From a virus (lineage: Duplodnaviria; Heunggongvirae; Uroviricota; Caudoviricetes), in IMG/VR virus record IMGVR_UViG_3300030037_000008, positions 47,072 to 111,071 of that record: a stretch of 64,000 nt of DNA; one strand, 5' to 3'. Positions within the stretch are counted from its first letter, which is position 1, and every line of letters starts with the position of its first letter. Below the pieces are notes generated by a model. It did not search any database and was not told the origin of the DNA. It saw only the letters and a list, made by a program, of their open reading frames with translations. Below, in pieces: positions 6,699-48,011 of the stretch. The position numbers and the translations under genes are program-made.

Positions 6699-7098
6699 TT
6701 GTATTTCCTCTTAATGATATCTTCATCCAAAGATAAGGGTTAACTTCAGTATACAATTCATGTTCAAAATCGTCAATGTCAGGGCCTCCTTCTATATGAA
6801 ATACTTTAAGCATACGAGCAGCTTCGTTAATGCACATTTGTTTTCTATTGGGAGTTTCATTTTCAAATCCTTTCCATTCATGATTCCGTGCAATTTCAGG
6901 TACGAATAGTTGAATCCATAAGAATATCTGACATACATCTGTATTACCTGGATGTGAAGTCTGTAGAGCCATATTAAAATCTTGGCCTAGTAAGCATGTT
7001 ACATAACTTCCAGGTTCGAAACCGTACATTACATAATTCTTAATAGAAGACATAGTATTGACTTCTGCTCTATCAAATAAAGTTCTTGGTAATATCAT
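6691..7098 (-). CDS. hypothetical protein (135 aa)
   Basis: ORF in a minus-strand operon; overlaps both neighbours by 4-8 nt. Confidence 0.45.
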   Translation of the reverse strand: MILPRTLFDRAEVNTMSSIKNYVMYGFEPGSYVTCLLGQDFNMALQTSHPGNTDVCQIFLWIQLFVPEIARNHEWKGFENETPNRKQMCINEAARMLKVFHIEGGPDIDDFEHELYTEVNPYLWMKISLRGNTNV

Positions 7099-8648
7099 GA
7101 GTAAAGACTCTTTGAGCTGGTTAAAATTGAATTCAATTGCGAGTTAGATTCATTAGCAATTCGAGTTTTCCAATATACTGAATCATCTATTGTACCAGAC
7201 TCTATACCCTTAATCACAGTATAATACTTGCTAGGAGCAATATTTTTTAACAAAGCTTTATCCTTATAAGGATCTACATCATACAGAGACTTTGCTAATA
7301 CATCATACAATCCTTTGTCTTTAAGTAACTTACTATTCTTATTCAGAATATTATCTGACATAACAAATCTAACTGACTTAGCATAACTTATTCCATGTTT
7401 ATACACATAGGTACTGTAAGATTTAACAGCTTGTTTAGTTGAGTTGGATATCACATGGAAATATAAGAACAGTTCTAATGGTGTGATTAAGCCTCTGAAT
7501 TTTATAAGACGATAGTCTAATTGTTCAATGTCATCTTTACTAAATTTAGAGACAGCATTAATAACTTTAGATGTTGAAACAAATGAGTCAGTACCTTTTA
7601 TCATTAAACCATCTTCATAATGATTACTTACATCAATTGAACTACTAGAGTTGATACTTCCACTCCAACTGGTAGCATCCTTTGTAATCATATGAAATAT
7701 AATTTGCAAGGTCAGATCATTTACATTAGCAGAATGATTTACTTTAAAAGTATCTGATAGTTTTACATTTTTATTTGTAGCATACAATTTAGCAAACTGT
7801 TTGTACATTACATTAGTTCGATGTCCAAATAACTTAGTAGCTTCTTTGCATGAAATATCTAAAACTTCAAACTCCATCATATCATTTGCTTTACAAATTT
7901 CTTGTTGTATAGCAGTTTCTAATTGAAGTGTATACGATGTAACCATTTCGAACAAATCATCTTCTTTGTAATTGTAAGTAGCTGAGATTAAGTATGAATC
8001 AAATTGATGACGAGTTATTTTTAAATTTCTATTTGTATGAAATCTAATAAGTTGTTCTTTCAATTGCTTGTTAGAAAGTTTAACGTGTCTTACTCTGTTA
8101 TGAAAAGCATTTGACAAAGTGTTAAGTGAAGAGTACTCGTTTCTATTCTTATTGATCAATCCAGTAAGAGTCTCCATGTTATGATCATCTTCAATCATTT
8201 TGAATATAGCTAAGATGTTATCTATAAGATCGATAGCTTCTTCTTTACCATGTTGAAAAACATGTTGATTAATTGCTTTGATGCATGTATGTCTAACTAG
8301 AAGTTTAAGATGACTACTATTATAAGAAGTAGCTTTGTTTAAATCAATTAGATTAAGTAAGTTAAGAACAGTAGTATCTTTATTCTCTGTTTCTTTAAGA
8401 GAGTTTATGATAGGTAAGTTAATATCATCTTCAATAACACTTCTTAGCGCCTCGTCATCTAGCATTTTATCATAATGCTGAATTGCACTGACACTTGTTT
8501 GTTTAGATACCATGCGTAGTAGTAATTCGAATTTAGGTAAGTCTTCTGCTTCTACATACTTATCAAGTTTTTTGAATATGGAAGTTCGTGCCACTGTAGA
8601 AGTACTTAAAATATCTCGTACTTTCATGAATAATTCTGTTTCTGTCAT
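7095..8648 (-). CDS. hypothetical protein (517 aa)
   Basis: Long uninterrupted ORF, Lys/Asn/Ser-rich. No recognisable catalytic motif. Confidence 0.55.
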   Translation of the reverse strand: MTETELFMKVRDILSTSTVARTSIFKKLDKYVEAEDLPKFELLLRMVSKQTSVSAIQHYDKMLDDEALRSVIEDDINLPIINSLKETENKDTTVLNLLNLIDLNKATSYNSSHLKLLVRHTCIKAINQHVFQHGKEEAIDLIDNILAIFKMIEDDHNMETLTGLINKNRNEYSSLNTLSNAFHNRVRHVKLSNKQLKEQLIRFHTNRNLKITRHQFDSYLISATYNYKEDDLFEMVTSYTLQLETAIQQEICKANDMMEFEVLDISCKEATKLFGHRTNVMYKQFAKLYATNKNVKLSDTFKVNHSANVNDLTLQIIFHMITKDATSWSGSINSSSSIDVSNHYEDGLMIKGTDSFVSTSKVINAVSKFSKDDIEQLDYRLIKFRGLITPLELFLYFHVISNSTKQAVKSYSTYVYKHGISYAKSVRFVMSDNILNKNSKLLKDKGLYDVLAKSLYDVDPYKDKALLKNIAPSKYYTVIKGIESGTIDDSVYWKTRIANESNSQLNSILTSSKSLYS

Positions 8649-9864: not shown

Positions 9865-10344
9865 TTAGGTATGTCTGCACCAGAAGTAATCTGATTCAGA
9901 AGTGTCAATGTCAATACCTTTGGTATGATATAAAACATCAATAAAGATAGAATCACTATCACCATTCCAGTAGTGTGGAATTACATTATCAAGTTTATGC
10001 CCGTTGTCATCTTCTGTTTCACTATTAGGTCTTAAGTAACCGAAGTGTCCACCATGAAAGAAAGTTTCATCATACTTAACTCCGTCAACATGGACAGTGT
10101 ATTCGTAATCTTCTATACCACCACAACATTCACAATCATATGAATCACGTTTAGTATCAATTTTAATATCAATACCTAACTTTGCTAGTATAGCTTTACC
10201 TACAATTTCTTCTGGATCTTTATCTTCTGCTACTGAGATGTTTTCAATTGTACCATCATCGTATGTAACTTTAAACTCTAGATTTTGAGGCCATTCATCT
10301 AAGTCAATATCCGGGTACTCTCCTTCTACTTTAATCTTTTGCAT
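9865..10344 (-). CDS. hypothetical protein (159 aa, Cys cluster CECCGG)
   Basis: ORF whose stop abuts the next gene start. Confidence 0.45.
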   Translation of the reverse strand: MQKIKVEGEYPDIDLDEWPQNLEFKVTYDDGTIENISVAEDKDPEEIVGKAILAKLGIDIKIDTKRDSYDCECCGGIEDYEYTVHVDGVKYDETFFHGGHFGYLRPNSETEDDNGHKLDNVIPHYWNGDSDSIFIDVLYHTKGIDIDTSESDYFWCRHT

Positions 10345-10586
10345 TAATGTCCCTTTAGTTTCATCATTCGTTTAATACTACTATCGCTAAAGATATGTTT
10401 CAAACAAATACCTGCTTGATCTCTAGGTTGTCCTGTACTCCAATCAATTTTCCATCCACCATGTGCAAGATTCTCGCATATACCAACATACGTACTTCTA
10501 TGATATTTGCCAATAAAATCGTTAGGCATGTCTGATACATTATCAATAGGATCATATAACTCTGTAACTGCTTTTTCAATATCCAT
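10344..10586 (-). CDS. YDPIDN-motif small protein, paralogue 1
   Basis: N-terminal ELYDPIDNVSDMPNDF and a central IDWSTGQPR block shared with 11158..11520. Confidence 0.5.
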   Translation of the reverse strand: MDIEKAVTELYDPIDNVSDMPNDFIGKYHRSTYVGICENLAHGGWKIDWSTGQPRDQAGICLKHIFSDSSIKRMMKLKGH

Positions 10587-10912
10587 TAATTAGTCCTTGC
10601 TCTAATAGCGGGTGCCATGTAATTAAGAACTTGCAATAAACGCGGATATCTAAAATGTACACTAAGCGATTCACCTGTAGAGTAAACAAATGCTTCTTCA
10701 TTTATCCAAGTAATCTGTACTTGATGTTTATCTTTAAACTCTTTAGAAATACGTATGTAATGATGTCCATACACGTTGTTTAATAAATTTTGAGGAATGT
10801 TGCTTATGTTGTCTATACAATCATATAAGCGATTGACACTCTCTAATAACTCTCTATCATCCGAGGACATAAGGACACCTATCAGTAGCAAGACTTGGTA
10901 ATGCTGTGACAT
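10586..10912 (-). CDS. YDPIDN-motif small protein, paralogue 2
   Basis: Contains RLYDCIDNISNIPQNL. Start may be the internal Met, because the track ORF overlaps its neighbour by 56 nt. Confidence 0.45.
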   Translation of the reverse strand: MSQHYQVLLLIGVLMSSDDRELLESVNRLYDCIDNISNIPQNLLNNVYGHHYIRISKEFKDKHQVQITWINEEAFVYSTGESLSVHFRYPRLLQVLNYMAPAIRARTN

Positions 10913-11165
10913 AGTACAAAGGTTTATGAAGTACTTCTATATGAAAGTACTTTGCAAGAGATCCAACACCTGGATCTTTACCTGCTATGTAAGGATGCAT
11001 GCAATCCCAATGAATATCAATTTCATACTTAGTAGCAAACTCTACTGCAACCTTTTTGTATAGAGAATACTTTGCATGAAATTTTAATTCTTCTGGTAAA
11101 TTAGAAACATTATCAATGTCTCCGTACATCTGACTTACCATTTCACGAACACTTTCGCTATTCAT
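10857..11165 (-). CDS. YDPIDN-motif small protein, paralogue 3
   Basis: Contains QMYGDIDNVSNLPEEL. Confidence 0.45.
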   Translation of the reverse strand: MNSESVREMVSQMYGDIDNVSNLPEELKFHAKYSLYKKVAVEFATKYEIDIHWDCMHPYIAGKDPGVGSLAKYFHIEVLHKPLYYVTALPSLATDRCPYVLG

Positions 11166-11520
11166 TATCGTGTCTTCCTATGTTCTCTTCTATAAAAGTA
11201 AAAGTTTCAGGATACATAAAGCAGACTGACATATCAACTCCTGGCATTCCATTCTCACTCTTTGTTCTAGGAGTTCCATCACTCCAATCTATTTCAACTC
11301 CTTGCTCTGCGAACTGTTCTGCTATGCCTCTGATGCCTTTATCAAAAGCTTGGTTGTTTTTGTAATTACTAGGCATTGATGATATGTTATCAATAGGATC
11401 ATATAGCTTTCTTACAGCGTCTTCAACTGAAGTATTATTCGCTGATTTAGTTCTTGTGGCAACTTCTTTCCAAAGTCTATCTACATGATCCTGGAGAAGA
11501 TCCTTTTCAGATTGTGTCAT
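11158..11520 (-). CDS. YDPIDN-motif small protein, paralogue 4
   Basis: Contains KLYDPIDNISSMPSNY and IDWSDGTPR. Confidence 0.5.
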   Translation of the reverse strand: MTQSEKDLLQDHVDRLWKEVATRTKSANNTSVEDAVRKLYDPIDNISSMPSNYKNNQAFDKGIRGIAEQFAEQGVEIDWSDGTPRTKSENGMPGVDMSVCFMYPETFTFIEENIGRHDNE

Positions 11521-13838: not shown

Positions 13839-14106
13839 CTAACATATCCAGTAAAGATTGAATGTATTCTCTTTTTAGAGTTGTAATACCTGGAGCAACC
13901 AAGTCTCTTGTTAATCTGATTTTAAGAGCTTTAATAATTTCTTTATCAGTGGTTGGCTTTACTTCTTTATCTAATGGAGGGAGTACTACCTTTACATTTG
14001 ATCTAGACGTTAACTGAACAAATACTTCTACTATACATGTTATTAATAGAATAAGTACTACAAACAATATTAATATTGAACATGGATTATTTAACATGGC
14101 TTCCAT
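13831..14106 (-). CDS. small membrane protein (91 aa, one TM helix)
   Basis: N-terminal hydrophobic segment ILILFVVLILLITCIVEVFV. Confidence 0.4.
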   Translation of the reverse strand: MEAMLNNPCSILILFVVLILLITCIVEVFVQLTSRSNVKVVLPPLDKEVKPTTDKEIIKALKIRLTRDLVAPGITTLKREYIQSLLDMLDA

Positions 14107-15050
14107 TAGGCATATCCATTTAAAGTATGAGAGAAAGATTCATAGTTCTGAACACCTCTGCCACCACAGCATTCACAATCTTTAAGAGGTTCATTGACAA
14201 CTTTCAGAATACTTTTTAAGTATACATCAAGTCTATCTTTAAGATCTTTTACATTGGAACCTTCCAGTGGTTCTACAGTGTGGTAGTCTTTGAGATATGT
14301 GGTAATACTAGGTGACTTAATTTTGAAGACACATGGAGTGTCACGTTGAGTTCTGAATGAAGTCGAGAATCTTGGTACTACATAAGGATCACCACCATTT
14401 TTCTTTTCTTCAGCCCAAATTTCTTCAGTTTTAATTTTAACAACTTTCTTAATAGCAATTGAAGATGAATCATCTCTATCAAATATTGCGTATCTAAGAT
14501 CCATGTTGTCACGTAAGAAAGATCTGATAACTTTCATTAGTTGAGCTGGTTTAATTGTACAAGGTTTGTTGTATAACAGAATGTCAGTATTCATTAAAGT
14601 CTGAAAGTCATTCCATGTTACGATGTCAGCAAACTTAAGTTTAACTGAGTGATCAGTCATGTTTGATACCTTTGGATCTAGTTGATATGCATCGTTAATG
14701 GGTTTAGAAAAATCACCAGCAGAAATTCTGCCTAAGCAAATGTCGGTAGCTTTAAGAACATGCCAAATTTGATCATGCATGGATTCTTTATACTCTAGCG
14801 ATTCAATTTTTGAAACACCTTTAATAATCATAAAGTCTTTAGAATTAAAGGTAGCAGTTGTTTCATAATCGTTTAGCACTTTACCGTTGATCTTTAGTGA
14901 CATTCGTTGTGACACAGCATTCATATCTTCATACTTTAAAACTGTTTGACCGGATGTAAAGTTATTTTCATACACGAATTTAGCTACGATCATGTCAGCA
15001 TCTTTAACTTCAAAGTATTGAATACTTTTAATATGTTGTATGTTACCCAT
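14106..15050 (-). CDS. hypothetical protein (314 aa)
   Basis: Long ORF; C-terminus carries CECCGG as in 9865..10344. Confidence 0.5.
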   Translation of the reverse strand: MGNIQHIKSIQYFEVKDADMIVAKFVYENNFTSGQTVLKYEDMNAVSQRMSLKINGKVLNDYETTATFNSKDFMIIKGVSKIESLEYKESMHDQIWHVLKATDICLGRISAGDFSKPINDAYQLDPKVSNMTDHSVKLKFADIVTWNDFQTLMNTDILLYNKPCTIKPAQLMKVIRSFLRDNMDLRYAIFDRDDSSSIAIKKVVKIKTEEIWAEEKKNGGDPYVVPRFSTSFRTQRDTPCVFKIKSPSITTYLKDYHTVEPLEGSNVKDLKDRLDVYLKSILKVVNEPLKDCECCGGRGVQNYESFSHTLNGYA

Positions 15051-15526
15051 TAGTCTTCTCCATAAAGTAAGTGTGAGTTAATTTGAGTTTGCCAATTGAA
15101 ATTGGATGGTAAGTAGATATGACAATAATCAGAGTTAGCTTCAAGCTTTCGGTATTGTTTAAACTTACTGCGTATACATTGTTTAATATCAGCGTGTCCT
15201 TTAATAACTTGAATAGGATCAAACCATTGTTCAGCTTTATCAGGAAAATGTGATACTAAAACTCTATGATCAATTGCCCATCTTAGGGTTTTTTTAGCAT
15301 AGAGATAATCAAAATGTTCAGGGTAATTAATTAAAACAGTATTGATAGTATCTGAATCAACCATCCATTTTGCTGGACCTTTAAACACTAAATCAAAATG
15401 TTTAGCATGAGGTTTAGCCATAAGAAGATAGATCTTATACTTACGCTTGAAAGTCAAAGGATTGAACCATTTATCGATTGAGTCGATATTTGATGCCATC
15501 CAGAATGATGTATAATTTACTTTCAT
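15050..15526 (-). CDS. divergent WFDP-repeat family protein
   Basis: IDKWFNPLTF and AEQWFDPIQV repeats. Ends LLYGED. Confidence 0.5.
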   Translation of the reverse strand: MKVNYTSFWMASNIDSIDKWFNPLTFKRKYKIYLLMAKPHAKHFDLVFKGPAKWMVDSDTINTVLINYPEHFDYLYAKKTLRWAIDHRVLVSHFPDKAEQWFDPIQVIKGHADIKQCIRSKFKQYRKLEANSDYCHIYLPSNFNWQTQINSHLLYGED

Positions 15527-15553: not shown

Positions 15554-15582
15554 ATTATAACTCTACTACACACACTGTACAA
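15554..15582 (-). promoter_or_regulatory. early promoter cassette TAAAGTGATTGTACA-N17-TATAAT
   Basis: Reverse complement reads TTGTAC (15577-15582), a 17-nt spacer, then TATAAT (15554-15559). Lies within a ~55-nt near-identical repeat also found at 15906-15968. Confidence 0.55.
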
Positions 15583-15587
15583 TCACT

Positions 15588-15905
15588 TTATAGTTTATTT
15601 TCCCACTTTTGTAATTTAGCAAATGCAATCTCTTTAAAGTCTTTCATAGTGCCACCTCTTTTAAAGAATAGAGAAGCTACTACAATAAACATATCAACTG
15701 CTTCTGAATAAGAAGGCTCATCAAGTTTCTTATAGCCTTTTACTTTACTTCCATCTTCAATACAAACAGCAGTCGAAAACTCGCCAACTTCTTCCATAAG
15801 ATGCATTAGCATAGTGCCAGTATCTTCGTTAGGATCTTCTAACATTTTATCAGTGAGTCTTTCAATTTCTTTGAACATATTTTCTAATTCAATTGTTCCG
15901 GTCAT
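15588..15905 (-). CDS. MazG-like nucleoside triphosphate pyrophosphohydrolase (small all-alpha NTP-PPase)
   Basis: LMEEVGEFSTAV and EAVDMFIVVASL metal-binding E/D motifs with a KLQKW tail, in a 105-aa protein. Confidence 0.55.
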   Translation of the reverse strand: MTGTIELENMFKEIERLTDKMLEDPNEDTGTMLMHLMEEVGEFSTAVCIEDGSKVKGYKKLDEPSYSEAVDMFIVVASLFFKRGGTMKDFKEIAFAKLQKWENKL

Positions 15906-15929: not shown

Positions 15930-15958
15930 ATTATAACTCTGTTATACACACTGTACAA
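15930..15958 (-). promoter_or_regulatory. early promoter cassette (second copy of the 15554 repeat), TTGTAC-N17-TATAAT
   Basis: Sequence ttatttgttttatctattataactct..cacactgtacaatcacttta is duplicated from 15530-15590. Followed by an identical RBS plus the first 5 codons (ATGACCGGAACAAT) shared by 15588..15905 and 15964..16416. Confidence 0.55.
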
Positions 15959-15963
15959 TCACT

Positions 15964-16416
15964 TTAGGAACTAAATTTAGACTTAAGCAATATAGGTGAA
16001 TTCTGTAAGTATATGCGTGAAGCAGCTGAATTCCAATCACCTCTTATACCAGGATAATTAGATCTATGCTCACCGTTCCATGCTACAATAGCGAATAGAT
16101 GGAAGTTAGGACGTGATGCGTAACTAATGAATTCAGTAATGTAATCTTTATTCAAGAGTCTGAGATGCCCGGCTTGGGCAATGTAATCTTCGCCTGATAT
16201 TTCGCACTTATGCCGCTGAATACAAGCTAGCATGTTAGTAGTACGAGTAGGAGGAATCCATTTAGTGAATTCATCTAGATAGCCAAGTAGTTCTTCTTCG
16301 GTACCTAAATGAGTTGCTCCATTTTTAATAGAGTTTCTGTACTGTTCTATACTATTAGTTCTTAGTATGTCAATTGAAAACTTATTAGAATGATTCAATT
16401 TTATTGTTCCGGTCAT
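15964..16416 (-). CDS. hypothetical protein (150 aa)
   Basis: N-terminus MTGTIKL is identical to that of the MazG-like gene, a duplicated 5' end. No clear domain. Confidence 0.45.
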   Translation of the reverse strand: MTGTIKLNHSNKFSIDILRTNSIEQYRNSIKNGATHLGTEEELLGYLDEFTKWIPPTRTTNMLACIQRHKCEISGEDYIAQAGHLRLLNKDYITEFISYASRPNFHLFAIVAWNGEHRSNYPGIRGDWNSAASRIYLQNSPILLKSKFSS

Positions 16417-16425
16417 AGTATTTCC

Positions 16426-16962
16426 TTAGTTGTATAAGTGTTTAGTTATTAGTTCTTGTTTTGAATAAACATCTTTGTATGCTTCTATACCTAGCTGTGC
16501 ATAATAAAGTAATAAATCATCTGAATACCAAAGGTCAATATCTTTGATACAATATTGAAGTAATAAATCTCCATCTTCCTGATCTGCAGAGTTGACATAC
16601 TTCTTTTCTAGAAGTCCAGGAATGAACCAATCTTCTATTCTATCAGGTACTCGTCTTATAACATGTCCCATATAGTTTAAGTTAAACATCATAGGATCCC
16701 ACCAAAGATCAAAGTATTGAGGAAAGTACTTAGGTAGAATGTGAGAGTAACTATGATAGCCAAATTGCTCCTTTGAAAATGTAGTTGGAAACATGTCAGT
16801 TACATATTCTTTGATTACTTTAGATTGTTCAAAGTATATAACTAAGTTTGCTAGTGGCTCAGTCTTGCATTGTTCCAAGTTAGATTCAATACGTTCTATT
16901 TCTTTGTCTACTCTAGCTTGTCTTACTGAGTTGTAGCCTACTGAAAATGATGATGTACTCAT
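16426..16962 (-). CDS. WFDP/WWD-repeat family protein
   Basis: FDLWWDP and IDLWYSDD repeats. C-terminus KQELITKHLYN. Confidence 0.55.
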   Translation of the reverse strand: MSTSSFSVGYNSVRQARVDKEIERIESNLEQCKTEPLANLVIYFEQSKVIKEYVTDMFPTTFSKEQFGYHSYSHILPKYFPQYFDLWWDPMMFNLNYMGHVIRRVPDRIEDWFIPGLLEKKYVNSADQEDGDLLLQYCIKDIDLWYSDDLLLYYAQLGIEAYKDVYSKQELITKHLYN

Positions 16963-17543
16963 GAGTAAAGCCTATCTGTCATATGCCAATTGACAATTTC
17001 TTCTTTAGTCATGTGAATCAGGGCATTGTATTTAGCTCCATCTTCGTTGTCTTTACGTTTTAGTGCGTGACACATTATAAATCTGTTTAGTGATTCAGGT
17101 GAGTACCAAATATCAATTTTATGTAGAGCGTTATCAAGTAACAGATAAAGCATATCACTTTCAATATATCTAATGTCTTTAAGCTTGGATCTATTCCACC
17201 ACTGTTCCATGTGGTCAGAACAATAGATAGTTAGCATTCTGTAATTTGCTTTAAAACAAACTTTACTTGGATCATACCAAATATCAAAGAAACGATTAAA
17301 GTGTATTAGCAAGTTGTTCATATGATTTTCAAAGTTATATGTGTCTTTATGAAGTGCCCACTGTTCTTCAAAGTTTTCATCCCACCATTTTCTAACAACT
17401 TCTGAAGTACTTTGAACTTGTCCTAATACAGAGAATACATTAGTACGTGAATATTGAATTTCAGCGTTTACTTTATCATATCTTCTGAGATAATCTTCTG
17501 TGAAGTCTTCGTATGATTGTTCTTGTTTTAAATTTTCATCCAT
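16959..17543 (-). CDS. WFDP/WWD-repeat family protein
   Basis: Repeats WWDENFEEQW, FDIWYDPSK, WWNRSK and IDIWYSPES. Ends RLYS. Confidence 0.55.
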   Translation of the reverse strand: MDENLKQEQSYEDFTEDYLRRYDKVNAEIQYSRTNVFSVLGQVQSTSEVVRKWWDENFEEQWALHKDTYNFENHMNNLLIHFNRFFDIWYDPSKVCFKANYRMLTIYCSDHMEQWWNRSKLKDIRYIESDMLYLLLDNALHKIDIWYSPESLNRFIMCHALKRKDNEDGAKYNALIHMTKEEIVNWHMTDRLYS

Positions 17544-17545
17544 AG

Positions 17546-17770
17546 CTATTCCTTATATTTTACCATTGCTTGATAAAAAGAGCTACAGTTATATCCGCTT
17601 GAATTAGTTCCTTGTAATACACCAAGAACTCCAAGTAGTTCATATCCACGTGCTGAAAGTTTAACAATTTGTTCAGGTATGCTTTGATGCATATTGGCTT
17701 GTACTATTTTGTAATCAAGTAATTCTTTCATAAAAAATCCTATTGCTGTTATCTTTATAATAACAAACAA
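17546..17770 (-). CDS. hypothetical small protein (74 aa)
   Basis: ORF only. Confidence 0.3.
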   Translation of the reverse strand: MFVIIKITAIGFFMKELLDYKIVQANMHQSIPEQIVKLSARGYELLGVLGVLQGTNSSGYNCSSFYQAMVKYKE

Positions 17771-17791
17771 TAGGATTATGTAAACCTCTAT

Positions 17792-17995
17792 TTAGTAAAT
17801 ACTGTGCATAAATGTTGATAAATAGTTTAATTGAGTTGGAGCTAATGTAATATCAGATCCATCAAAGTTTAAGTATTTACAATTTATATCTTCTACAACT
17901 GTACCTACTAGAACTTCTGACTTATCGTAGCTAATAAAGTATACTTTATCTTGCACGAGTTTGAATAACGGTGGTGCTTCTTTCTTTTTACTCAT
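17792..17995 (-). CDS. hypothetical small protein (67 aa)
   Basis: ORF only; stop overlaps the methyltransferase start (ATGA). Confidence 0.35.
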   Translation of the reverse strand: MSKKKEAPPLFKLVQDKVYFISYDKSEVLVGTVVEDINCKYLNFDGSDITLAPTQLNYLSTFMHSIY

Positions 17996-19197
17996 TTTTT
18001 CATTTCAGTCCATGTTGATGTTACTTTAGAGAGATCGCTGATTGAATCAAGATCTTCATATGTTAACTGGAAGCGCTGCATTTTAGTATGCTGTTGGTAT
18101 ACTAAGCTACAATCTTCTACCATATCTAGCTTGCCTTCTAATGCATCTATAGCTTGGCGTACAATGTATTCAACAGTAGAAGCTGCTACACCTTGAGCAA
18201 TACATTGTACTACAGAAGTTTTACATTCGTCTTGATAGAACTTGAAGTCTTTAGGATAACCCATAAGAGCTTTGAATTCTGCAATGTTTAAATCGCGATC
18301 TTCATGTGGGTGGATGTATTCTACCATAGAAGTAATAGAGCAACAATTCGAATCACCTCTCATCTTATATTTACCATGACCAAAGTACCGTTTACCTTCT
18401 TTAAGACATTGTGCAATACGTTTAACATTCTTATAGTTAGATGCATGCGATTCTTTAATAGATTCAATATCTACATTATTCATAGCAAGTGATTCAAACA
18501 TTGCTTTCTTAGGAAGAACATCTTTATAGAAAGGAACTAAAGCTGGATCAACATGGCCTTTGATGTATTCTCCCCAACCTTCATGACTAGAATCAACATT
18601 AACTAGAATATCATCTACTACGCATTTAGGATTTTTCATTGCATTAACGAGAGGTACTTTGTTATCAAACTCAGATTTCAACCAAGCAACAAACAAAGTT
18701 CTTTGGCGAATCATTGGAACACCGTGAGTATCATTAGTAAGACGAATAGCAGTGAAGTTATATTTTTCTTTCATAACATCAATAGCTTCTTTAAGAACAG
18801 GATAACCTTTTGAAATTAAAGCGGGCGCATTCTCGAGAATAAGTACCTTAGGTTCTAAGAGATTAGCTGTATGCGCTGATTCTACAATGTAGTTATTAAT
18901 TGAAGCATCAGCAGAAGCATGTCTATTAACAGAAGATAATCCAGAACAAGGAGCATTGGAAAACATAATATCAATCTTTCCTTTGTACTTCGCTTCTATA
19001 TCAGTTTCAGTCCATTCAGTTCTTCCAATAACATTTAGATCTTTTTCATTTTTAATCAAATGATATGAATTTTGTGTTAGAATATCATCTGAAATTTCCA
19101 GAATATCATTTACTTGGAGTCCAGCATTTTTCATTCCGAAGTATGCTGACCCGCCAAATATGAATTGACCGATGCCTGTGTATTTTTTCTTACTCAT
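17992..19197 (-). CDS. DNA (cytosine-5)-methyltransferase-like protein
   Basis: Motif I-like FIFGGSAYFGMKNAG. Catalytic motif IV PC, NAPCSGLSS. Motif VI ENV-like LILENAPAL. 401 aa. Confidence 0.65.
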   Translation of the reverse strand: MSKKKYTGIGQFIFGGSAYFGMKNAGLQVNDILEISDDILTQNSYHLIKNEKDLNVIGRTEWTETDIEAKYKGKIDIMFSNAPCSGLSSVNRHASADASINNYIVESAHTANLLEPKVLILENAPALISKGYPVLKEAIDVMKEKYNFTAIRLTNDTHGVPMIRQRTLFVAWLKSEFDNKVPLVNAMKNPKCVVDDILVNVDSSHEGWGEYIKGHVDPALVPFYKDVLPKKAMFESLAMNNVDIESIKESHASNYKNVKRIAQCLKEGKRYFGHGKYKMRGDSNCCSITSMVEYIHPHEDRDLNIAEFKALMGYPKDFKFYQDECKTSVVQCIAQGVAASTVEYIVRQAIDALEGKLDMVEDCSLVYQQHTKMQRFQLTYEDLDSISDLSKVTSTWTEMKK

Positions 19198-19237
19198 ATA
19201 TGTCCTTTATTTAGGTTTATCATTAAGAAACAACTAA

Positions 19238-19732
19238 CTATCCATACATGGATTCTGCTATATATTCTTGTTCTGTTTTATCAAAGAAGTTTTCTGATGG
19301 AGGATTTCTATGCCAAGTACTTATATTACTTATACAATACTTTACTAAGTATTCTGTTCTACATTTATCAGAATTATCTTTACTGTCAGTAAAGATATCA
19401 CTAAAATACAAACTAGGATTATACCATTCTCTGAAATACTCATTACAATATCTAGCTAATGCTTTAGCATACCTCCAAGTATAGTCTACATTCTTAACAT
19501 AAGGCCACCATTTTTCAAAATGTTCGGAACAGAATTCGAATAAGAATTCTACATCAGAAAAACAATATACTTCAGGGTCCCACCAATCATCAAATCTATC
19601 TGAACAGAATTCTGCTAAGTAAAGAGAGTAGTACCACTGAAATGTATCAGGATCAAACCAATCATCAAAGTACTTAGCATTATCTATCCACCAAAGATCT
19701 TCAAATACAATATCTTCGTTAGTTAGTTTCAT
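19238..19732 (-). CDS. WFDP/WWD-repeat family protein
   Basis: DDWFDPDTFQW, FDDWWDPEVY, FEKWWPYV and FREWYNPSLY repeats. Ends SMYG. Confidence 0.6.
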   Translation of the reverse strand: MKLTNEDIVFEDLWWIDNAKYFDDWFDPDTFQWYYSLYLAEFCSDRFDDWWDPEVYCFSDVEFLFEFCSEHFEKWWPYVKNVDYTWRYAKALARYCNEYFREWYNPSLYFSDIFTDSKDNSDKCRTEYLVKYCISNISTWHRNPPSENFFDKTEQEYIAESMYG

Positions 19733-20232
19733 TCGTACATTACATTTGATAGAATTGAAAGTTTAGATTCGCCATGCATATAAATAGAAGCATCATCAAA
19801 CCAAGTGTCAATGTCTTTTATACAATGCTCTACTAAATGAGTAACTTTGGTTGCAGATTCATATATATGAATCGATCTGTCATCCTCGCAGTAATATTTT
19901 ATATGGTACCAAAGATCAAAGTTATCAGCACAGAATATAGCAAGCAATCCGGAATATCTCCAATTGTACTTATCAGCATTCCACCATGTTTTTATATTAT
20001 CGTAGCAGTGTCGTGTTAATGCATCAGATTCATGGTAATCATAAAGATCTTTGTCCCACCAAAATTCAAAATATTGAGAACAATACTCTGCTAGATATCT
20101 ACAGTTACGCCATTCGAATAAGTCAGGATCAAACCAAGTATGAAACAACTTTCCATTCTCTTCGAACCAATCATCGTTATACTCGATTTCCCATCTTTCT
20201 CTAAGTACATTGTATTCTAATTTATTACTCAT
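19729..20232 (-). CDS. WFDP/WWD-repeat family protein
   Basis: HTWFDPDLFEW, FEFWWDKDLY, IKTWWNADKY, FDLWYHIKYY and IDTWFDD. Ends VMYE. Confidence 0.6.
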   Translation of the reverse strand: MSNKLEYNVLRERWEIEYNDDWFEENGKLFHTWFDPDLFEWRNCRYLAEYCSQYFEFWWDKDLYDYHESDALTRHCYDNIKTWWNADKYNWRYSGLLAIFCADNFDLWYHIKYYCEDDRSIHIYESATKVTHLVEHCIKDIDTWFDDASIYMHGESKLSILSNVMYE

Positions 20233-20264
20233 AATGTCTCTGATATATTTTTAAAATAATATCT

Positions 20265-20292
20265 ACTATACTACACTATTAAGAGATGTAAA
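20265..20292 (-). promoter_or_regulatory. promoter TTTACA-N16-TATAGT with conserved GTTTTACATCTC(T/A)TTAAT element
   Basis: Reverse complement of tgtaaa (20287-20292) and actata (20265-20270). The same -35 context recurs at 21747-21774. Confidence 0.45.
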
Positions 20293-20295
20293 ACT

Positions 20296-20820
20296 CTAGT
20301 TGTATAATGATGCAGTTATAAGTTCTTGTTTAGATTGAGTGAATATATCCGAGTCATACCAAGTATCGATAGCATACATAGCACTTAAAGTTAATGTCTT
20401 TGTTTTCTTTATCATGAGTCTTCTAAGATTCATCTTCTCTAGATTACTAACTGAATTAAAACTATACTTATCTAAATCGAAATACAACTTATGATCATAC
20501 CAATCATCAAATCTGTCGGCACAGTATATCATCATCAGTTCATTAGGTTTGATCTCATTCCAATTATGTCGCATAGGATTCCACCAAACATCTAGATAAT
20601 CATGACAATAATAAGGCAGATGATTATAACTAGACATATCAAACAAATCTATATCATACCACTTCTCTATATCTTTAGTGCAATATTTAGCTAGTAGATT
20701 ACATCCCCAGCGATCCCACTTAAAGGTCTCTATATCAAACCACTCATCAAATCTATCGGCATTACATCTGAACCAACTATGACTGTAATATAATTCTCTT
20801 CCTTCATCATCATTATGCAT
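20296..20820 (-). CDS. WFDP/WWD-repeat family protein
   Basis: FDEWFDIETFKW, IEKWYDIDLF, LDVWWNPMRH, FDDWYDHKLY and IDTWYDSD. Ends SLYN. Confidence 0.6.
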   Translation of the reverse strand: MHNDDEGRELYYSHSWFRCNADRFDEWFDIETFKWDRWGCNLLAKYCTKDIEKWYDIDLFDMSSYNHLPYYCHDYLDVWWNPMRHNWNEIKPNELMMIYCADRFDDWYDHKLYFDLDKYSFNSVSNLEKMNLRRLMIKKTKTLTLSAMYAIDTWYDSDIFTQSKQELITASLYN

Positions 20821-21253
20821 ACATAGAATCCACTATGATTTCTTGTTTAGTATGTACTAATCTTTCTTCACAATACCATACATCTATCCTGTCAATACAA
20901 TGGTCTTTTAGATAACACCACATATACCAATCAAACTTATCAGGATTCCACCATACATTAAAGTTCTTAGAATTAAACTGTGCTAAGTATTTAGAATATC
21001 CTTGGTAGTCAAATCTAGTATGATTCCACCAACTTGCAAAGTGTTCAGGACAATACTTAGCCAATTGACTATATGCTAAATCAGAAATAAGTCCAGGTCT
21101 ATACCACTTACCAAAATGATTAGAACAATTAACTATAAGTAGTTCAATACAATCCCAATCAAAAGTCTCTAGATCAAACCACTCATCAAATCTATGTTCG
21201 TTAGCCCCGAACCACATTTTGCTGTAATAAGGTTCGTACTTATCAGTTTCCAT
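20813..21253 (-). CDS. WFDP/WWD-repeat family protein
   Basis: FDEWFDLETFDW, FGKWYRPGL, FASWWNHTRF, FNVWWNPDKF and IDVWYCEE. Ends SMYA. Confidence 0.6.
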   Translation of the reverse strand: METDKYEPYYSKMWFGANEHRFDEWFDLETFDWDCIELLIVNCSNHFGKWYRPGLISDLAYSQLAKYCPEHFASWWNHTRFDYQGYSKYLAQFNSKNFNVWWNPDKFDWYMWCYLKDHCIDRIDVWYCEERLVHTKQEIIVDSMYA

Positions 21254-21710
21254 ACATACTCTCTACTATAAACTCTTGCTTAGTTTTCTCAATGTTTAAG
21301 TAAGGATACCACATATCTATATGACTAATAGTCCTACTTGCAAATAACTTTAAGGCGCTTCTTACGCATATGTCATGTATAATGGTGTGAGGATCGCATC
21401 TGAACCATGTAGGAAAGTTATCTGAACAGTGTCTAAGTAAACCATCTACTTCGAAATATCTAAAGTATTCAGGATCCCACCAAATATCAAAATGATCAGA
21501 ACAGTATCTAGCAAGTCGGTTACAATGTCTCCAATAGAACTTATCAGGATACCACCAAGTTTCAATCTTGCTACTACAGTGACTAGCTAGATAATGTGAT
21601 TCACTCCACATGTACATATCAGGATCGAACCATTCGTCGAATCTATGAGAATTGTTAATGAACCAAAGTTCTGTGTATGTAACATCAGAGGGGTCTAATT
21701 TATTAGGCAT
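21243..21710 (-). CDS. WFDP/WWD-repeat family protein
   Basis: FDEWFDPDMYMW, IETWWYPDKF, FDIWWDPEYF, FPTWF and IDMWYPY. Ends SMYGN. Confidence 0.6.
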   Translation of the reverse strand: MPNKLDPSDVTYTELWFINNSHRFDEWFDPDMYMWSESHYLASHCSSKIETWWYPDKFYWRHCNRLARYCSDHFDIWWDPEYFRYFEVDGLLRHCSDNFPTWFRCDPHTIIHDICVRSALKLFASRTISHIDMWYPYLNIEKTKQEFIVESMYGN

Positions 21711-21746
21711 GTTATGTTATAGTATCCTTGTTATTATGCTTAAGAT

Positions 21747-21774
21747 AAGATAACACACATTAATGAGATGTAAA
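21747..21774 (-). promoter_or_regulatory. promoter TTTACA-N16-TATCTT upstream of the five-gene WFDP-family operon
   Basis: Reverse complement TTTACATCTCATTAATGTGTGTTATCTT. Shares its 5' part with the 20265-20292 promoter. Confidence 0.4.
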
Positions 21775-21779
21775 CAAAC

Positions 21780-21811
21780 AAATGGACTAAATTTAATTAT
21801 TTAGTCCATTT
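21780..21811 (-). terminator. rho-independent terminator candidate downstream of a-gt
   Basis: Perfect 13-bp inverted repeat AAATGGACTAAAT / ATTTAGTCCATTT with a 6-nt loop. On the minus-strand RNA it is followed by GUUUGUUUAC. Confidence 0.45.
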
Positions 21812-21831
21812 GATTACCAGGAAGTTATATC

Positions 21832-23043
21832 TTAGATAGTCAAGTCTTTAAGAATGATATCATAAACTAATGGAGCATCTGCATGAGATTTCCAGAAAGC
21901 GAATGATTCTTCTCTCATCTTATCTCTTGCAATTGGATCGTTAGCAAGTTTTTCCATGAGTTGTGCAGTCTCTTCTAAGTTATTCTCATCTACCCAAATT
22001 GTACCATTGTTTGGACAATCGATAAGTGGAATATCTTTAGTAAGGTGCATAGTATGCTGACCAAAATGCTTGTGGAATACTGGAATAGTACCGGATGCAA
22101 TTACATCTGCATGGCAATATTCAAAGCTCTTACCATATTTCTGAGGTTTGAGATTATAGAAGTCACAACCAAATGCTGTCTTGGAAAGACGATGCATACA
22201 TTCTACATATTTGTAATCACCAAAGACATAAGCATTTTCTCCAACTACCATGTCATCTGGACCAATGCCACATTTCTTGTAGTTAAGGCATTCTTTAATA
22301 TCAGGGCGTTGACCATTTGCACGTTGACCATCATTGAAGAAGAATCGCAATCCACCAATAGATAGTTCCATACCTTCTAAAGAAGTTTTGAATCCCTGTG
22401 CCTTGAGGTGTTCACGGTGAAGGTCATAGACTTGTTCAGGACCTTTCCACATTGCAGATCGACCAATGAATTTGAAAGTCTTATCATCTTGTTCTTCAAT
22501 GGGTTTCCAATAGTTAGCACGATGTTCATCAAAGTTAAAGCCTACTGGAAAGACTTTCATTGGAGTAGTGACACCTTCACGCGCCATCTTCTTAGCCAAG
22601 TCACCTTCAGTAGAGTGAGCAAAGATAGTATGCATCTTACTACATATTTCCATCATACGAGCATTTCGAACAATTGAATGAACTGAATGGTCTACACAAA
22701 TCATAATCTGTTTAGTAGTAAGACCATCAATCATCGCCATGAAGTTATCAACTGATTCATCCGGAGTTTTCTTGGGTGGCTGAGAGAAATGAATGACTAG
22801 ATCATAGTCACTATTAAGACGAGCAGTAAGAGCTTCACATTCATCTTTGTTCTTCATTCCCCATTCTTCTATTTCGATAGGTTGAGCATTACGTCTGCCC
22901 CATTTTTTATCGTTAGTAGCAAAGATGTCACAATTGACACCAATAGTTCTACAGTACTTTTGCATTTCAATACAGTTCTTTGTATTGCCTACACCTGGAA
23001 TACCGCGCGCCATGATGAGTGCTACTGATTTATAATTTGACAT
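21832..23043 (-). CDS. a-gt: DNA alpha-glucosyltransferase homologue (T4 a-gt / AGT-like, GT-B fold)
   Basis: Block-wise identity to T4 AGT. LIMARGIPGVGNTK matches IFMARGLEGCGVTK. FIGRSAMWKGPEQVYDLHREHLK matches WIGRTTTWKGFYQMFDFHEKFLK. SFEYCHADVIASGTIPVF matches SLEYTHLELGACGTIPVF. NGTIWVDENNLEET matches SGIIWFDENDMEST. The RBS AACAAAAAGGAAAAAT-ATG is shared with frd and uvsX. Confidence 0.8.
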   Translation of the reverse strand: MSNYKSVALIMARGIPGVGNTKNCIEMQKYCRTIGVNCDIFATNDKKWGRRNAQPIEIEEWGMKNKDECEALTARLNSDYDLVIHFSQPPKKTPDESVDNFMAMIDGLTTKQIMICVDHSVHSIVRNARMMEICSKMHTIFAHSTEGDLAKKMAREGVTTPMKVFPVGFNFDEHRANYWKPIEEQDDKTFKFIGRSAMWKGPEQVYDLHREHLKAQGFKTSLEGMELSIGGLRFFFNDGQRANGQRPDIKECLNYKKCGIGPDDMVVGENAYVFGDYKYVECMHRLSKTAFGCDFYNLKPQKYGKSFEYCHADVIASGTIPVFHKHFGQHTMHLTKDIPLIDCPNNGTIWVDENNLEETAQLMEKLANDPIARDKMREESFAFWKSHADAPLVYDIILKDLTI

Positions 23044-23090
23044 ATTTTTCCTTTTTGTTTTGTTTTTGTTTAATAATAAGAAACAAGCTT

Positions 23091-24539
23091 TTATAGATTT
23101 AACAATCTTTTAACTTCTTTTTCCCAATACAATTTATCTTCTCTTATCTTAAATAAAATTCGCAATTCTAAAATAAGTAAGTATTGTTCTTGAGGGTTGC
23201 TGTTGTAGTATTCAATTTTGTCTTTGATATCTTGACCATTTTCTACTCTTAACTTATCCTGAATCTCTCTAGGAATCTGTAAGTAATCAGGATCATACTC
23301 TGAATCAATGAATGGAAGTACTCCTGCCATTGCATAAAATGCTGGTCTGAAGTTAAGAGAATCATAGCTACTAGTACATCGTAGTAAGAGAGAATATTTA
23401 TATTCAGATACTACCTTAAATTGTTCAGTTGGTAAGAAGGATCCTTTATAAAGAGGGTTAGCTTCGATCTCATCTTTAAGTTCTTTGAGGTGAGCATACT
23501 TCTCATCAGCCATGTACTTAGCCATCATAGTAGTCTTACGCTTAGCTTCTTTCTGGTTACATATGATACCATTAAGCGTTGTAGGAATGTACATAGAGTT
23601 CTTTTCAGGATCCAATCCTTCTAATCCTTTAAGGAATTTCTCGTACATCTTGTGACGTTCTCCTTTGCCGTAGAAGATAGAACCATAGAAGCAAAAGTCT
23701 TTAGGACATTCAATGTCTTCTTTGACTTGATACTCCGATCCAAACAAACATTGCATTTCACCCATTGGCATGTGAGTAAAATCACGAGTACCGCGATGGT
23801 CATCTGCAAAGTAAAATTTAGTACTCTTATAGCCAAGATGATCTGCGTAAGTCCAGTGATAGACAGGATCGATAATGTAGTTATAAGAAAGGCAACCTGG
23901 ATTGTTATTGATGATACATTCTAATACTCCAGCATGAGCAGCATTTTCATTTTGAGAGAATGCAAGTGGAGACATACCAGTAAGTGGTACAGCATTAACA
24001 CGATCATTAGTTTGATGTATAGCTTTAATAACATTTAGATCTGATCCAACATAATCAAAGTATTCATTTTGTAGATCTTTAAGAACTGGATTAGCATCTT
24101 TCTCAGGTTTGAGTACATGTTCCATTAGAGGAAGCATGAAACTAGGAAGTCCAATTGATACTGCTTTGATTTTGATATCACCAAGAACTTTACTGATAGA
24201 GTCTACTACAACAGTTTGGTTATGAACTCTAAACCAATCACATTCAGGGGTAGGAACAAAGTCTTTACTTCTGATAAGTTTCTCTGTAATGCCAGGGTTA
24301 TTTGAAATGTTAACAATGTTTCTGTATCCACGATCTTGGAAGTATTTGATATCATCCTTGTTTAACATACCAACAATGATTATGTTGTAATCTTTAGCTA
24401 CAGTATCCATGATGAACTTGTTAACAAATCCATGAGTGTATTCATACTTAACTGCTTTGCTTGTTAAAAATACAACATTCTCCTTTGAGCCGTCAAGCTC
24501 CATGTATTCGATGACTTCTGCATATTCATATTTTTTCAT
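23091..24539 (-). CDS. DNA beta-glucosyltransferase-like protein (T4 b-gt / BGT homologue) with a ~100-aa N-terminal extension
   Basis: FCFYGSIFYGKGERHKMYEKFL matches T4 BGT DVIYGGSFRSGQRESKMVEFL. NFRPAFYAMAGVLPFIDSEYD matches LRVWETMASDAVMLIDEEFD. 482 aa versus 351 in T4. Confidence 0.6.
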   Translation of the reverse strand: MKKYEYAEVIEYMELDGSKENVVFLTSKAVKYEYTHGFVNKFIMDTVAKDYNIIIVGMLNKDDIKYFQDRGYRNIVNISNNPGITEKLIRSKDFVPTPECDWFRVHNQTVVVDSISKVLGDIKIKAVSIGLPSFMLPLMEHVLKPEKDANPVLKDLQNEYFDYVGSDLNVIKAIHQTNDRVNAVPLTGMSPLAFSQNENAAHAGVLECIINNNPGCLSYNYIIDPVYHWTYADHLGYKSTKFYFADDHRGTRDFTHMPMGEMQCLFGSEYQVKEDIECPKDFCFYGSIFYGKGERHKMYEKFLKGLEGLDPEKNSMYIPTTLNGIICNQKEAKRKTTMMAKYMADEKYAHLKELKDEIEANPLYKGSFLPTEQFKVVSEYKYSLLLRCTSSYDSLNFRPAFYAMAGVLPFIDSEYDPDYLQIPREIQDKLRVENGQDIKDKIEYYNSNPQEQYLLILELRILFKIREDKLYWEKEVKRLLNL

Positions 24540-28400: not shown

Positions 28401-29078
28401 CTAATCATAAAGTTTAGTCATCTTTCCTAGATTGAATGCTACATCAATAAGCTTAGTAGCATCCAAAGGTTCGGTATCATCTACAATAGGAGAAGAAAGA
28501 ATCATATCTACTGAAGCTCCACTACGTAATGCTATGTTAGTTGCCATGTTTCTAACATCACATTTAAATAGTTTAGGAATATCTTCAGGCTTTGGAGAGT
28601 TTTTACATTTAGCACAAGCTAATACGATTGTCATTTCAGATGAGGTAATAAGATCTACATCTATACAACATAACAACTCTGATTTATAAGAAGTTACTAA
28701 TGATGCAATACCCATTAAGATATCAGTTTCACGAAAGAAGTTAAATAAATCACCTGTATAAGAATGAACATCTACACAAGCTTTAACATAATTCCATGCA
28801 TCTTTCTGACAAGAAATTCCTATTATAGAGTTTTTATAAATCAGAGTACTATCATCAGCTTCAGTAACAAGAATTCTTATTTTAGCAGCTAGTTCTTTGT
28901 CAGTAAATCTACCAAGTAAATCATTGACTGATTCGTTTCCGTCAATCTTCATATCGCAATCTATTACTCTATTAATATGAGCTGAACCTATTGCTATATC
29001 ACTAAGGGCTCCTTGAACTCCAGTAGCACCAGATCCATATGGTATCGATGCTGCAGCATAACTCATAATATTACCCAT
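28401..29078 (-). CDS. hypothetical protein (225 aa)
   Basis: ORF with no confident motif. Ends TKLYD. Confidence 0.45.
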   Translation of the reverse strand: MGNIMSYAAASIPYGSGATGVQGALSDIAIGSAHINRVIDCDMKIDGNESVNDLLGRFTDKELAAKIRILVTEADDSTLIYKNSIIGISCQKDAWNYVKACVDVHSYTGDLFNFFRETDILMGIASLVTSYKSELLCCIDVDLITSSEMTIVLACAKCKNSPKPEDIPKLFKCDVRNMATNIALRSGASVDMILSSPIVDDTEPLDATKLIDVAFNLGKMTKLYD

Positions 29079-33678: not shown

Positions 33679-34095
33679 TTATGAATATAATTTACAAGCG
33701 CTATAAATCAATTCAATTTGTTTGTAGTTTAGTGAAGTGTCAGGTATTTCAAAGGTTCTACCAGGATCATCCAGCATGTCTAATAAGCTTTCTTCAGACA
33801 TAACTTGTAGCGCCATAGTTTTACAATCGTTAACTCTCATATGATAGTTAGAAGGCTTCTTAGAAAACCAATTCTTTTTATGAGGTTTAATATGAAATAT
33901 ATAAAAGCTATCTCCATTAACTCTTACTATGTATCTATTTAAGAATTGTTCTAATAAGAAGTTAGGAGTTTGCCAATTACCTTCACCACACGCGGTACAT
34001 CTAATTGTTCTACTTGCGTCACATCCAAAACAATGACTACTCATTAATATCCTCCTTCTACTACATGAGACATTAAATATCTTCATAGGTTTCAT
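33679..34095 (-). CDS. hypothetical protein with an N-terminal Cys4 zinc-finger-like cluster (138 aa)
   Basis: CFGCDASRTIRCTACGEG. Ends CKLYS. Confidence 0.45.
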   Translation of the reverse strand: MKPMKIFNVSCSRRRILMSSHCFGCDASRTIRCTACGEGNWQTPNFLLEQFLNRYIVRVNGDSFYIFHIKPHKKNWFSKKPSNYHMRVNDCKTMALQVMSEESLLDMLDDPGRTFEIPDTSLNYKQIELIYSACKLYS

Positions 34096-36263: not shown

Positions 36264-36617
36264 TTAGTCATACATTTCTTCTACTGCTACAGGGTTAACT
36301 GGAAGGCAATCTAAACTTTGCCATGCGACTATATTTTCATGAATACATGGCCCACAATCACTAATTGATCCTCTATCATCGTGATCATATCCAAGAAGAT
36401 AACGTTCAACTTTTTTATCATCAGTAGAATGCAATAGAGGCGTGTCTATATGTCTAACATCACCAAGTCTTCCTAAGACAACTATACCTGATGATAACGC
36501 AAGTACTACATTATCACCAAGTGGCGGAAGGTTCTTATCTTTAAATGCTACTGAATCTTTTTCTACAATGATTGTATGAGATAGAGTACCTAAGATGTAA
36601 TTCCATTCATACTTCAT
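36264..36617 (-). CDS. hypothetical protein (117 aa)
   Basis: ORF only. Confidence 0.4.
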   Translation of the reverse strand: MKYEWNYILGTLSHTIIVEKDSVAFKDKNLPPLGDNVVLALSSGIVVLGRLGDVRHIDTPLLHSTDDKKVERYLLGYDHDDRGSISDCGPCIHENIVAWQSLDCLPVNPVAVEEMYD

Positions 36618-47965: not shown

Positions 47966-48011
47966 ATATTTTCCTTTTTTGTTATTGGTTTCATATAGTA
48001 TATAAAACAAA

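Follow-up and report, generated by a model that had tools for sequence, protein, structure and literature searches.

The DNA analysed here (the window) is a stretch of 64,000 nucleotides of the virus record IMGVR_UViG_3300030037_000008. It carries eleven open reading frames (ORFs), five of them in tandem at 19238..21710, that encode one family of tryptophan-rich tandem-repeat proteins. The best-supported statement on this family is that its members are predicted to form short-period alpha-solenoids with a tryptophan core, conserved caps and variable surfaces. The most surprising result of the analysis is that the C-terminal tail of these proteins is a phage-wide tag, common to about a third of the window genes and specific to this phage. 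Most likely, at a probability of roughly 0.4, the family proteins would serve as early-acting binding modules, i.e., as adaptors or inhibitors.

An earlier note on this DNA had described one multigene family of tandem-repeat proteins with 11 members in 64 kb. All eleven listed coordinates were verified as ORFs, one of which is cut by the window edge (Table 1). A profile generated from ten members recovered the divergent eleventh, 15050..15526, which had been left out of the profile, at E=3.7e-10, and pairwise BLASTP of the five tandem genes gave E values of 1e-14 to 2e-27. These results bear out a single family. In the six-frame translation of the window, no other ORF passed the inclusion threshold of the ten-member profile. 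The count of eleven therefore stands for the window, but the family extends past it: P0100 (151 aa), encoded on the same 255,591-bp contig, is a twelfth member, and P0059 (127 aa) is the full-length form of the member cut by the edge. The family proteins are 124 to 194 aa in length and contain 5 to 7.5% tryptophan (background, 1.2%). Their isoelectric points (pI) lie between 4.3 and 5.5, with 15050..15526 (pI 9.2) as the sole exception, and ten of the eleven have a net charge of -7 to -18. The G+C content of the family genes equals that of the window.

Analysis of the repeat revealed a unit of 25 to 26 residues with the pattern S-x-Y-L-A-x-Y-C-S-x-x-F-D-x-W-W-D-P-x-x-F-x-W. An iterated unit profile detected 829 units in 158 family proteins with a modal start-to-start spacing of 25 to 26 residues (468 spacings). 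The most frequent residues were S-x-Y-L-A-K-Y-C-S-D-H-F-D-K-W-W-D-P-D-K-F-N-W-x-x, and the most conserved positions among the 829 units were W15 (100%), L4 (92%), F12 (88%), W23 (81%), D17 (74%), W16 (72%) and C8 (67%). The window proteins contain two to five units each, and each tandem gene encodes five by motif. Thus, of the earlier description of three to six copies of a unit of about 25 to 30 aa, the tandem repeats were confirmed, but the counts were lower and the period was narrowed. In all five tandem genes, position 4 of the first unit is W and position 8 is N, and the last unit always has the form I-[DS]-x-W-[YFH]. Such position-specific units show whole-gene duplication, and not separate amplification of units, to be the origin of the tandem genes.

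The AlphaFold2 model of the 21243..21710 protein, calculated with the eleven paralogues as alignment, was all-helical, with a predicted local distance difference test score (pLDDT) of 89.5 and a predicted template modelling score of 0.81. The AlphaFold model of a canonical homologue, P0161, had a pLDDT of 93.7, rising to about 98 over seven identical units. In both models, each unit consists of a 10-residue helix, a 7-residue helix and a 7-residue loop, and neither model contains beta-strands in the repeat region. The units are predicted with high confidence to stack as an alpha-solenoid. The earlier note had left a solenoid and a beta-propeller as options for repeat-aware structure prediction; the models gave the alpha-solenoid class and ruled out the propeller. 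The predicted architecture, likewise of high confidence, comprises an N-cap unit (W-F-x-x-N...F-D-x-W-F-D), two or three internal units, a C-cap (I-D-x-W-Y) and a terminal helix; in the 21243..21710 model this packed terminal helix is formed by the tail. The conserved L, C, F, W, W, F and W positions would constitute the core, and the remaining dozen or so positions per unit, which vary freely among the paralogues, would constitute the surface.

The tail is present in ten of the eleven window members and degenerate in 15050..15526. It had been described as a shared tail of the family (I-D-x-W-Y...) and is real, but it is not family-specific. An [LM]-Y-x(0-3) ending was found on 32 of the 103 window genes, compared to 2.35 expected from the internal [LM]-Y frequency (binomial P=3e-27); with the family removed, 22 of 93 genes were still tagged (P=2e-16). 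The positions preceding L-Y in the tagged proteins are acidic at -11/-10, L or I at -9, hydrophobic at -6/-5 and K, S or E at -1. The tags finish in G, S, A, D, E, N or V, never in H, and about a quarter of the 32 finish in D or E. Five different codons are used for the tag leucine, the TAT:TAC ratio of the tag tyrosine (21:11) is the same as genome-wide, and the spacing between a tagged gene and its successor varies from -35 to +245 nt. The free use of synonymous codons and the variable spacing indicate that the constraint acts at the protein level. At several tagged junctions TAT-Gnn supplies the next ATG. An artefact of overlapping start codons was nevertheless rejected as the general cause, because the L and Y codons vary in the proportion seen genome-wide and gaps of 2 to 245 nt follow 14 of the tagged genes.

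Global homology was also rejected as the reason for sharing the tag. Thirteen small consecutive non-family genes are all tagged (Table 1) and are barely alike in pairwise comparison (one pair at 2e-5); a profile generated from them recovered neither family members nor further tagged proteins. The same profile found the untagged neighbour 61470..62081 at E=5.5e-10, which suggests that 56814..62081 on the minus strand harbours a third multigene family whose members have diverged very far. None of the 32 tagged window genes encodes a recognisable enzyme, and four tagged non-family proteins had no homologue among the GenBank phages.

Other phages carrying the family have endings of their own. A second phage contig (ERZ4200886 NODE_1, 257,096 bp, 33% G+C; loci L095 and L098; identical to IMG 3300037804 Ga0427872_0000001) encodes at least 11 family members in about 30 kb. 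Its family and non-family genes alike bear a different ending, M-x-x-[HY]-[LMIF]-x(0-4), typically K-M-K-E-H-L-x, which was found on 22 of 77 genes compared to 0.2 expected (P=8e-39). This ending occurs on no window gene, and the L-Y ending occurs on one gene of the second contig. Further contig-specific endings are F-K-[IL]-E-[HY]-D-[IL] (L011/L022), [FW]-[KR]-[LI]-E-[HY]-G (L008) and K-L-x-x-I-K (L101), the last of which agrees with the ...L-L-I-K-S-I-K ends of short family homologues. A literature search on shared C-terminal motifs in phages found no description, and we know of none of phage-specific shared C-terminal tags. The sharing of the tag suggests a single partner that deals with every tagged protein, in docking, targeting or turnover. 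It is possible, and we propose it tentatively, that large, mostly marine phages mark a large share of their lineage-specific accessory proteins with phage-specific C-terminal tags that are read by a co-evolving phage-encoded receptor, as a so far unrecognised sorting, docking or turnover system of which the solenoid family would be one cargo class. The tag may outweigh the family as a lead: if a common receptor reads it, phages would be seen to organise their accessory proteome in a new way.

The repeat could not be placed in a named family, as the earlier note had stated. Ten window members had no Pfam match above the curated cut-off or even at E<=1, the window members had no match in PHROGs, and no Pfam repeat family was matched among 60 homologues. 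Searches of NCBIfam and PADLOC and a profile search of all PDB sequences revealed no match to the family, no BFVD entry matched with an E value under 0.8, and three family proteins queried by tblastn had no match among 50,697 GenBank phages. Literature searches on the Trp-rich repeat and on DUF2201/MoxR found nothing relevant. The family lacks the unit of about 33 to 42 aa and the signature of HEAT, ARM, ankyrin, TPR or PPR repeats. The best structural matches to the family models were importin-beta, the PP2A A subunit, designed ARM proteins and CLASP TOG. Like HEAT, Armadillo and TOG proteins, whose usual role is protein binding, the family is predicted to stack antiparallel helix pairs into an elongated solenoid. 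Its predicted fold is not close to any solved repeat family, and the unit is unusually short. A functional analogy may exist with viral ankyrin-repeat multigene families. The ankyrin families of poxviruses and giant viruses (vaccinia K1L, African swine fever virus MGF360) belong to eukaryotic viruses, have a 33-aa repeat with a beta-hairpin finger and show no sequence relation to the window family. The alpha-solenoid class and expanded repeat families of large viral genomes are already known; the 25-residue Trp-rich repeat is new, being absent from all libraries searched although hundreds of relatives occur in metagenomes of phages and cells, and the family offers a compact, highly regular repeat scaffold.

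Rapid diversification, which the earlier note had suggested, was not borne out. The paralogues within the window genome are 23 to 39% identical, and the window members score about equally against proteins of other genomes and against their own paralogues. At the DNA level, repeats in the array extend over less than 80 nt at 60 to 80% identity, and tandem repeats of DNA were not found there. Recent duplication or gene conversion was rejected on these grounds; old duplications that have been retained would fit the data. A collection of 15 billion proteins contained no orthologue closer than about 50% identity, and the ratio of nonsynonymous to synonymous substitution rates was therefore not computable.

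Searching 1.84 billion representative proteins with the family profile revealed 351 matches at E<=1e-3, 210 at E<=1e-10 and 32 at E<=1e-30; some of the homologues come from Tara Oceans samples. Loci were located with a degenerate DNA pattern, and chance matches (6 of 18 viral and 45 of 70 genome loci) were removed. The family occurs in twelve IMG/VR loci, with three to five family genes lined up in tandem arrays; such arrays recur in the other large phages L009, L020 and L022. The family neighbours in the IMG/VR loci include a multisubunit RNA polymerase, a family-B DNA polymerase, gp32, a phiKZ-type internal head protein, ribonucleotide reductase and QueC. The second 257-kb contig has one other detectable gene in common with the corresponding window region. 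The repeat array of at least 21 clusters is fused to a domain that resembles the ADP-ribosyltransferase (ART) fold, which is N-terminal in the P0161 subfamily and does not occur in the window members; the domains fused to the repeat in long homologues had no informative Pfam match.

The family is also found in cellular genomes. It is carried by 25 GTDB loci, mostly from metagenome-assembled genomes (MAGs) of Desulfobacterales, Deltaproteobacteria or Thermodesulfobacteriota, where the family protein is single-copy. In 16 Desulfobacterales/Thermodesulfobacteriota MAG loci, the family gene (175 to 240 aa) opens a conserved operon and is followed by a DUF2201_N+DUF2201 gene (metallopeptidase-like and VWA-like, about 480 to 510 aa) and an AAA_5-like ATPase gene (about 380 aa), the AAA matches being at or below Pfam thresholds. 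A DUF2325 or hybrid histidine kinase gene often lies upstream, and ordinary chromosomal genes, e.g., those for a hybrid histidine kinase and a DtxR-type repressor, are found nearby. In that the family gene directly precedes the VWA-like and AAA_5-like genes, these 16 loci resemble MoxR-type AAA+/VWA systems, with the family protein in the place of a third component. With 351 matches outside the window, including those in cellular MAGs, the family is not an invention of the window phage.

The earlier note had also placed the family behind early-type promoters, and such sites were found. The motif [GT]T[GT]TACA-N15-17-TAnnnT has 19 matches in the window, 13 of which fall in the intergenic 7.6% (9-fold enrichment); the intergenic matches sit 25 to 55 nt upstream of starts on the same strand. 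This class of promoter serves four family transcription units, and a slightly weaker site serves 19729..20232. The motif resembles sigma70 and T4 early promoters, and family genes have a GTTTAC-type -35 and a TATAAT-type -10 element directly upstream, as do early genes of T4-type phages. From this likeness, early transcription of the family genes by the host polymerase is a reasonable inference. The five tandem genes at 19238..21710, all on the minus strand, had been read as one operon. The genes were confirmed, with overlaps of 4, 8 and 11 nt at three of their junctions, but the 63-nt gap 20233..20295 between 20296..20820 and 19729..20232 holds a promoter-like site, so the array probably forms two transcription units in a 3+2 arrangement. 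A 57-nt promoter and leader cassette is duplicated at 15554..15610 and 15930..15986 on the minus strand (53 of 57 nt identical) and precedes 15050..15526 and 15588..15905. Together with the hairpin and promoter at 21747..21812, it resembles the mobile promoter/stem-loop (PeSL) cassettes of T4-type phages.

According to the explanation that we favour, each paralogue would be a protein-binding module with a separate target among the host or phage proteins, bound early in infection. The genes would be transcribed by the host polymerase in accessory regions, beside DNA-modification and counter-defence genes. Since the phage versions have no enzyme domain, the proteins may act by sequestration, blocking or bridging. 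The binding-module explanation is based on the general role of solenoids, the acidity of the family, the promoter type, the enzyme-like fusion and the VWA/AAA+ operon. The ART-like fusion and the operon elsewhere would fit the target-recognition part of a larger machine and offer testable hints of such a module, and in T4-like and jumbo marine phages the family would supply candidates for proteins of early host interaction. Several points weigh against this explanation. The solenoid and its buried residues are predicted, and "binding module" would fit almost any alpha-solenoid, which makes the claim weakly specific. No neighbour is conserved between the window and the other loci apart from one weak pair. 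Unlike the MoxR-type systems, the window phage has neither the VWA nor the AAA+ partner, no homologue of either being found in the window, and these partners have no PADLOC entry as a defence system. In the second 257-kb phage, the neighbours of the family are mostly unannotated, and a counter-defence neighbourhood was not seen.

The neighbourhood in the window bears on a narrower explanation, in which the paralogues would be anti-defence inhibitors or decoys that each neutralise a different host immune sensor or effector. We regard this as unlikely, though it has concrete points in its favour. The stop codon of 15050..15526 overlaps the start codon (TAATG) of 14106..15050 on the minus strand, so that the two genes are translationally coupled; the latter encodes a 314-aa protein with a Pfam match to Gad1 (PF25705, E=7.6e-28). 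Gad1 is an anti-defence protein against Gabija (bioRxiv 10.1101/2023.05.01.538930). The member 41186..41731 is divergent from a nicotinamide phosphoribosyltransferase (NAMPT) gene, 39564..41048 on the minus strand (phrog_448, E=5e-102), and NAMPT belongs to NARP2, a pathway by which phages reconstitute NAD+ (NARP2: PMC13464706). The array itself lies between a DNA methyltransferase and an alpha-glucosyltransferase gene, and the early-type promoters and the multi-copy arrays in several large phages would suit such a role as well. Such surroundings would be in keeping with host interaction or counter-defence, as the earlier note had supposed, but they come from one genome, and the function named in that note is a guess from the neighbourhood only. 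The argument is one of guilt by association, and known anti-defence neighbours are missing in the second phage. No similarity to known defence or anti-defence proteins was found in Pfam, PHROGs or PADLOC, the Gad1 match belonging to the neighbour only. Moreover, the ancient divergence of the paralogues does not resemble the recent turnover of an arms race, and the family also occurs as a single-copy gene of a chromosomal operon in Desulfobacterales MAGs.

The tag allows a further explanation, which we consider quite unlikely: the tagged proteins would be cargo that the tag sends to the capsid interior for co-injection or to another phage compartment, with the solenoid as payload. The excess of tagged genes with varying codons and gaps, the other tags of the second phage and of further contigs, and the lack of recognisable tagged enzymes in the window would agree with it. 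As short terminal peptides on unrelated proteins, the tags can be likened to encapsulin cargo-loading peptides and to the T4 capsid-targeting sequence. The T4 signal is N-terminal, however, and the encapsulin peptides are disordered and Gly/Ser-rich. Against the cargo explanation, the promoters are of the early and not the late type, and the tail is modelled as a packed helix and not as a free peptide. Packaging a third of all genes seems too many, and the receptor is only hypothetical.

It is very unlikely that the tail is a degron through which a host or phage protease would clear the tagged early proteins together at the late switch. The tag does stand at the extreme C terminus of many unrelated accessory proteins, and its ...L-Y-x ending resembles the C-terminal histidine degron of Lon: the Lon substrates SulA (...HSYLYH) and Smg (...DGLYH) bear autonomous C-terminal degrons (PMC11986505). 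The Lon degron x-[LI]-[LIV]-H needs a terminal His, and Lon and ClpXP disfavour acidic C termini (PMC11986505). A degron of the SulA type was rejected, because the required His never ends a window tag and the acidic ends disfavoured by Lon are common here. Variation of the tag between phages would also be unexpected for a conserved host protease.

Finally, it is highly improbable that the proteins are nucleic-acid binders of the PPR, PUF or TAL kind that would control phage or host RNA with one unit per base, because the acidity of ten of the eleven members argues against nucleic-acid binding, no basic stripe is evident, the window members and 60 homologues have no Pfam match to RNA-binding repeats, and the units of PPR, PUF and OPR proteins, unlike those of the family, span 35 to 38 aa with basic surfaces.

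Table 1. Family genes, tagged genes, promoters and related features of the window, and cellular loci of the family.
Feature	Position or loci	Strand	Remarks
Family member, cut by edge	1..252	+	C-terminal 83 aa; profile E=3.5e-25; contained in P0059
Family member, 124 aa	245..619	+	2-3 units, C-cap and tail ...TKQTMIVQMLYV
Divergent basic family member, 158 aa, pI 9.2	15050..15526	-	Profile E=3.7e-10
Family member, 178 aa	16426..16962	-	N-terminal ~70 aa non-repeat, then 3 units and tail
Family member, 194 aa	16959..17543	-	N-terminal extension, 4 units, longer tail
Tandem array gene 5, 164 aa	19238..19732	-	5 units, pI 4.3
Tandem array gene 4, 167 aa	19729..20232	-	5 units; probable head of second transcription unit
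Tandem array gene 3, 174 aa	20296..20820	-	5 units
Tandem array gene 2, 146 aa	20813..21253	-	5 units
Tandem array gene 1, 155 aa	21243..21710	-	5 units; protein modelled with AlphaFold2
Singleton family member, 181 aa	41186..41731	+	Divergent from NAMPT (39564..41048)
Non-repeat protein, 205 aa	5858..6475	-	Last-unit/tail motif only (...IDEWH...TRTTIINRMYGD); marginal profile match, E=0.018
Thirteen consecutive small non-family genes	56814..61470	-	All with [LM]-Y-x tag
Nine other tagged non-family genes (117-517 aa)	1467..2549, 2536..3723, 5858..6475, 7095..8648, 28401..29078, 33679..34095, 36264..36617, 42409..43668, 44776..45927		
Early-type promoter, GTTTACA-N16-TATCTT	21747..21775	-	Upstream of array gene 1 (21243..21710)
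Hairpin, 14-bp stem, terminator-like	21779..21812	-	Directly upstream of the 21747..21775 promoter; PeSL-like arrangement
Internal promoter-like site, TTTACA-N16-TATAGT	20265..20292	-	In 63-nt array gap
Early-type promoter, TTGTACA-N16-TATAAT	15554..15582	-	Upstream of 15050..15526; within duplicated 57-nt cassette
Early-type promoter, GTGTACA-N16-TATCTT	41128..41156	+	Upstream of 41186..41731; back to back with NAMPT promoter
NAMPT promoter, early-type	41082..41110	-	Back to back with 41128..41156
Early-type promoter	17757..17785	-	Upstream of small ORF, then pair 16959..17543 / 16426..16962
Desulfobacterales/Thermodesulfobacteriota operon	L028, L032, L035, L036, L038, L039, L044, L047, L048, L062, L064, L083-L087, L090; L005		L028 to L090 are GTDB MAG contigs

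The window has a G+C content of 33% and is gene-dense, with the minus strand predominating. In addition to the methyltransferase, glucosyltransferase and NAMPT genes, the genes recognised in it encode a topoisomerase II large subunit, a UvsX-like recombinase, a GNAT acetyltransferase, a nucleotidyltransferase and a primase-type zinc ribbon. The family proteins of the window are recorded only on the single 255,591-bp contig, and the window therefore belongs to a large T4-like or jumbo phage genome. A megablast search with 17000..24000 revealed no close relative among the 50,697 GenBank phage records; the topoisomerase II showed its best identity, 44%, to those of Ralstonia RsoM2USA and Pseudomonas pf16. 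The 269-aa product of 658..1467 (+) combines HHH_5 and BRCT domains in the manner of the C-terminal part of an NAD-dependent ligase, but it lacks the adenylation domain. A second, unrelated paralogous set of four tandem small genes (80 to 120 aa; BLASTP, 1e-5 to 1e-12) lies at 10344..11520 (-). The UvsX-like recombinase gene, 45992..48010 (-), encodes 672 aa, of which residues 350 to 620 match recombinases, following an N-terminal extension of about 340 aa.

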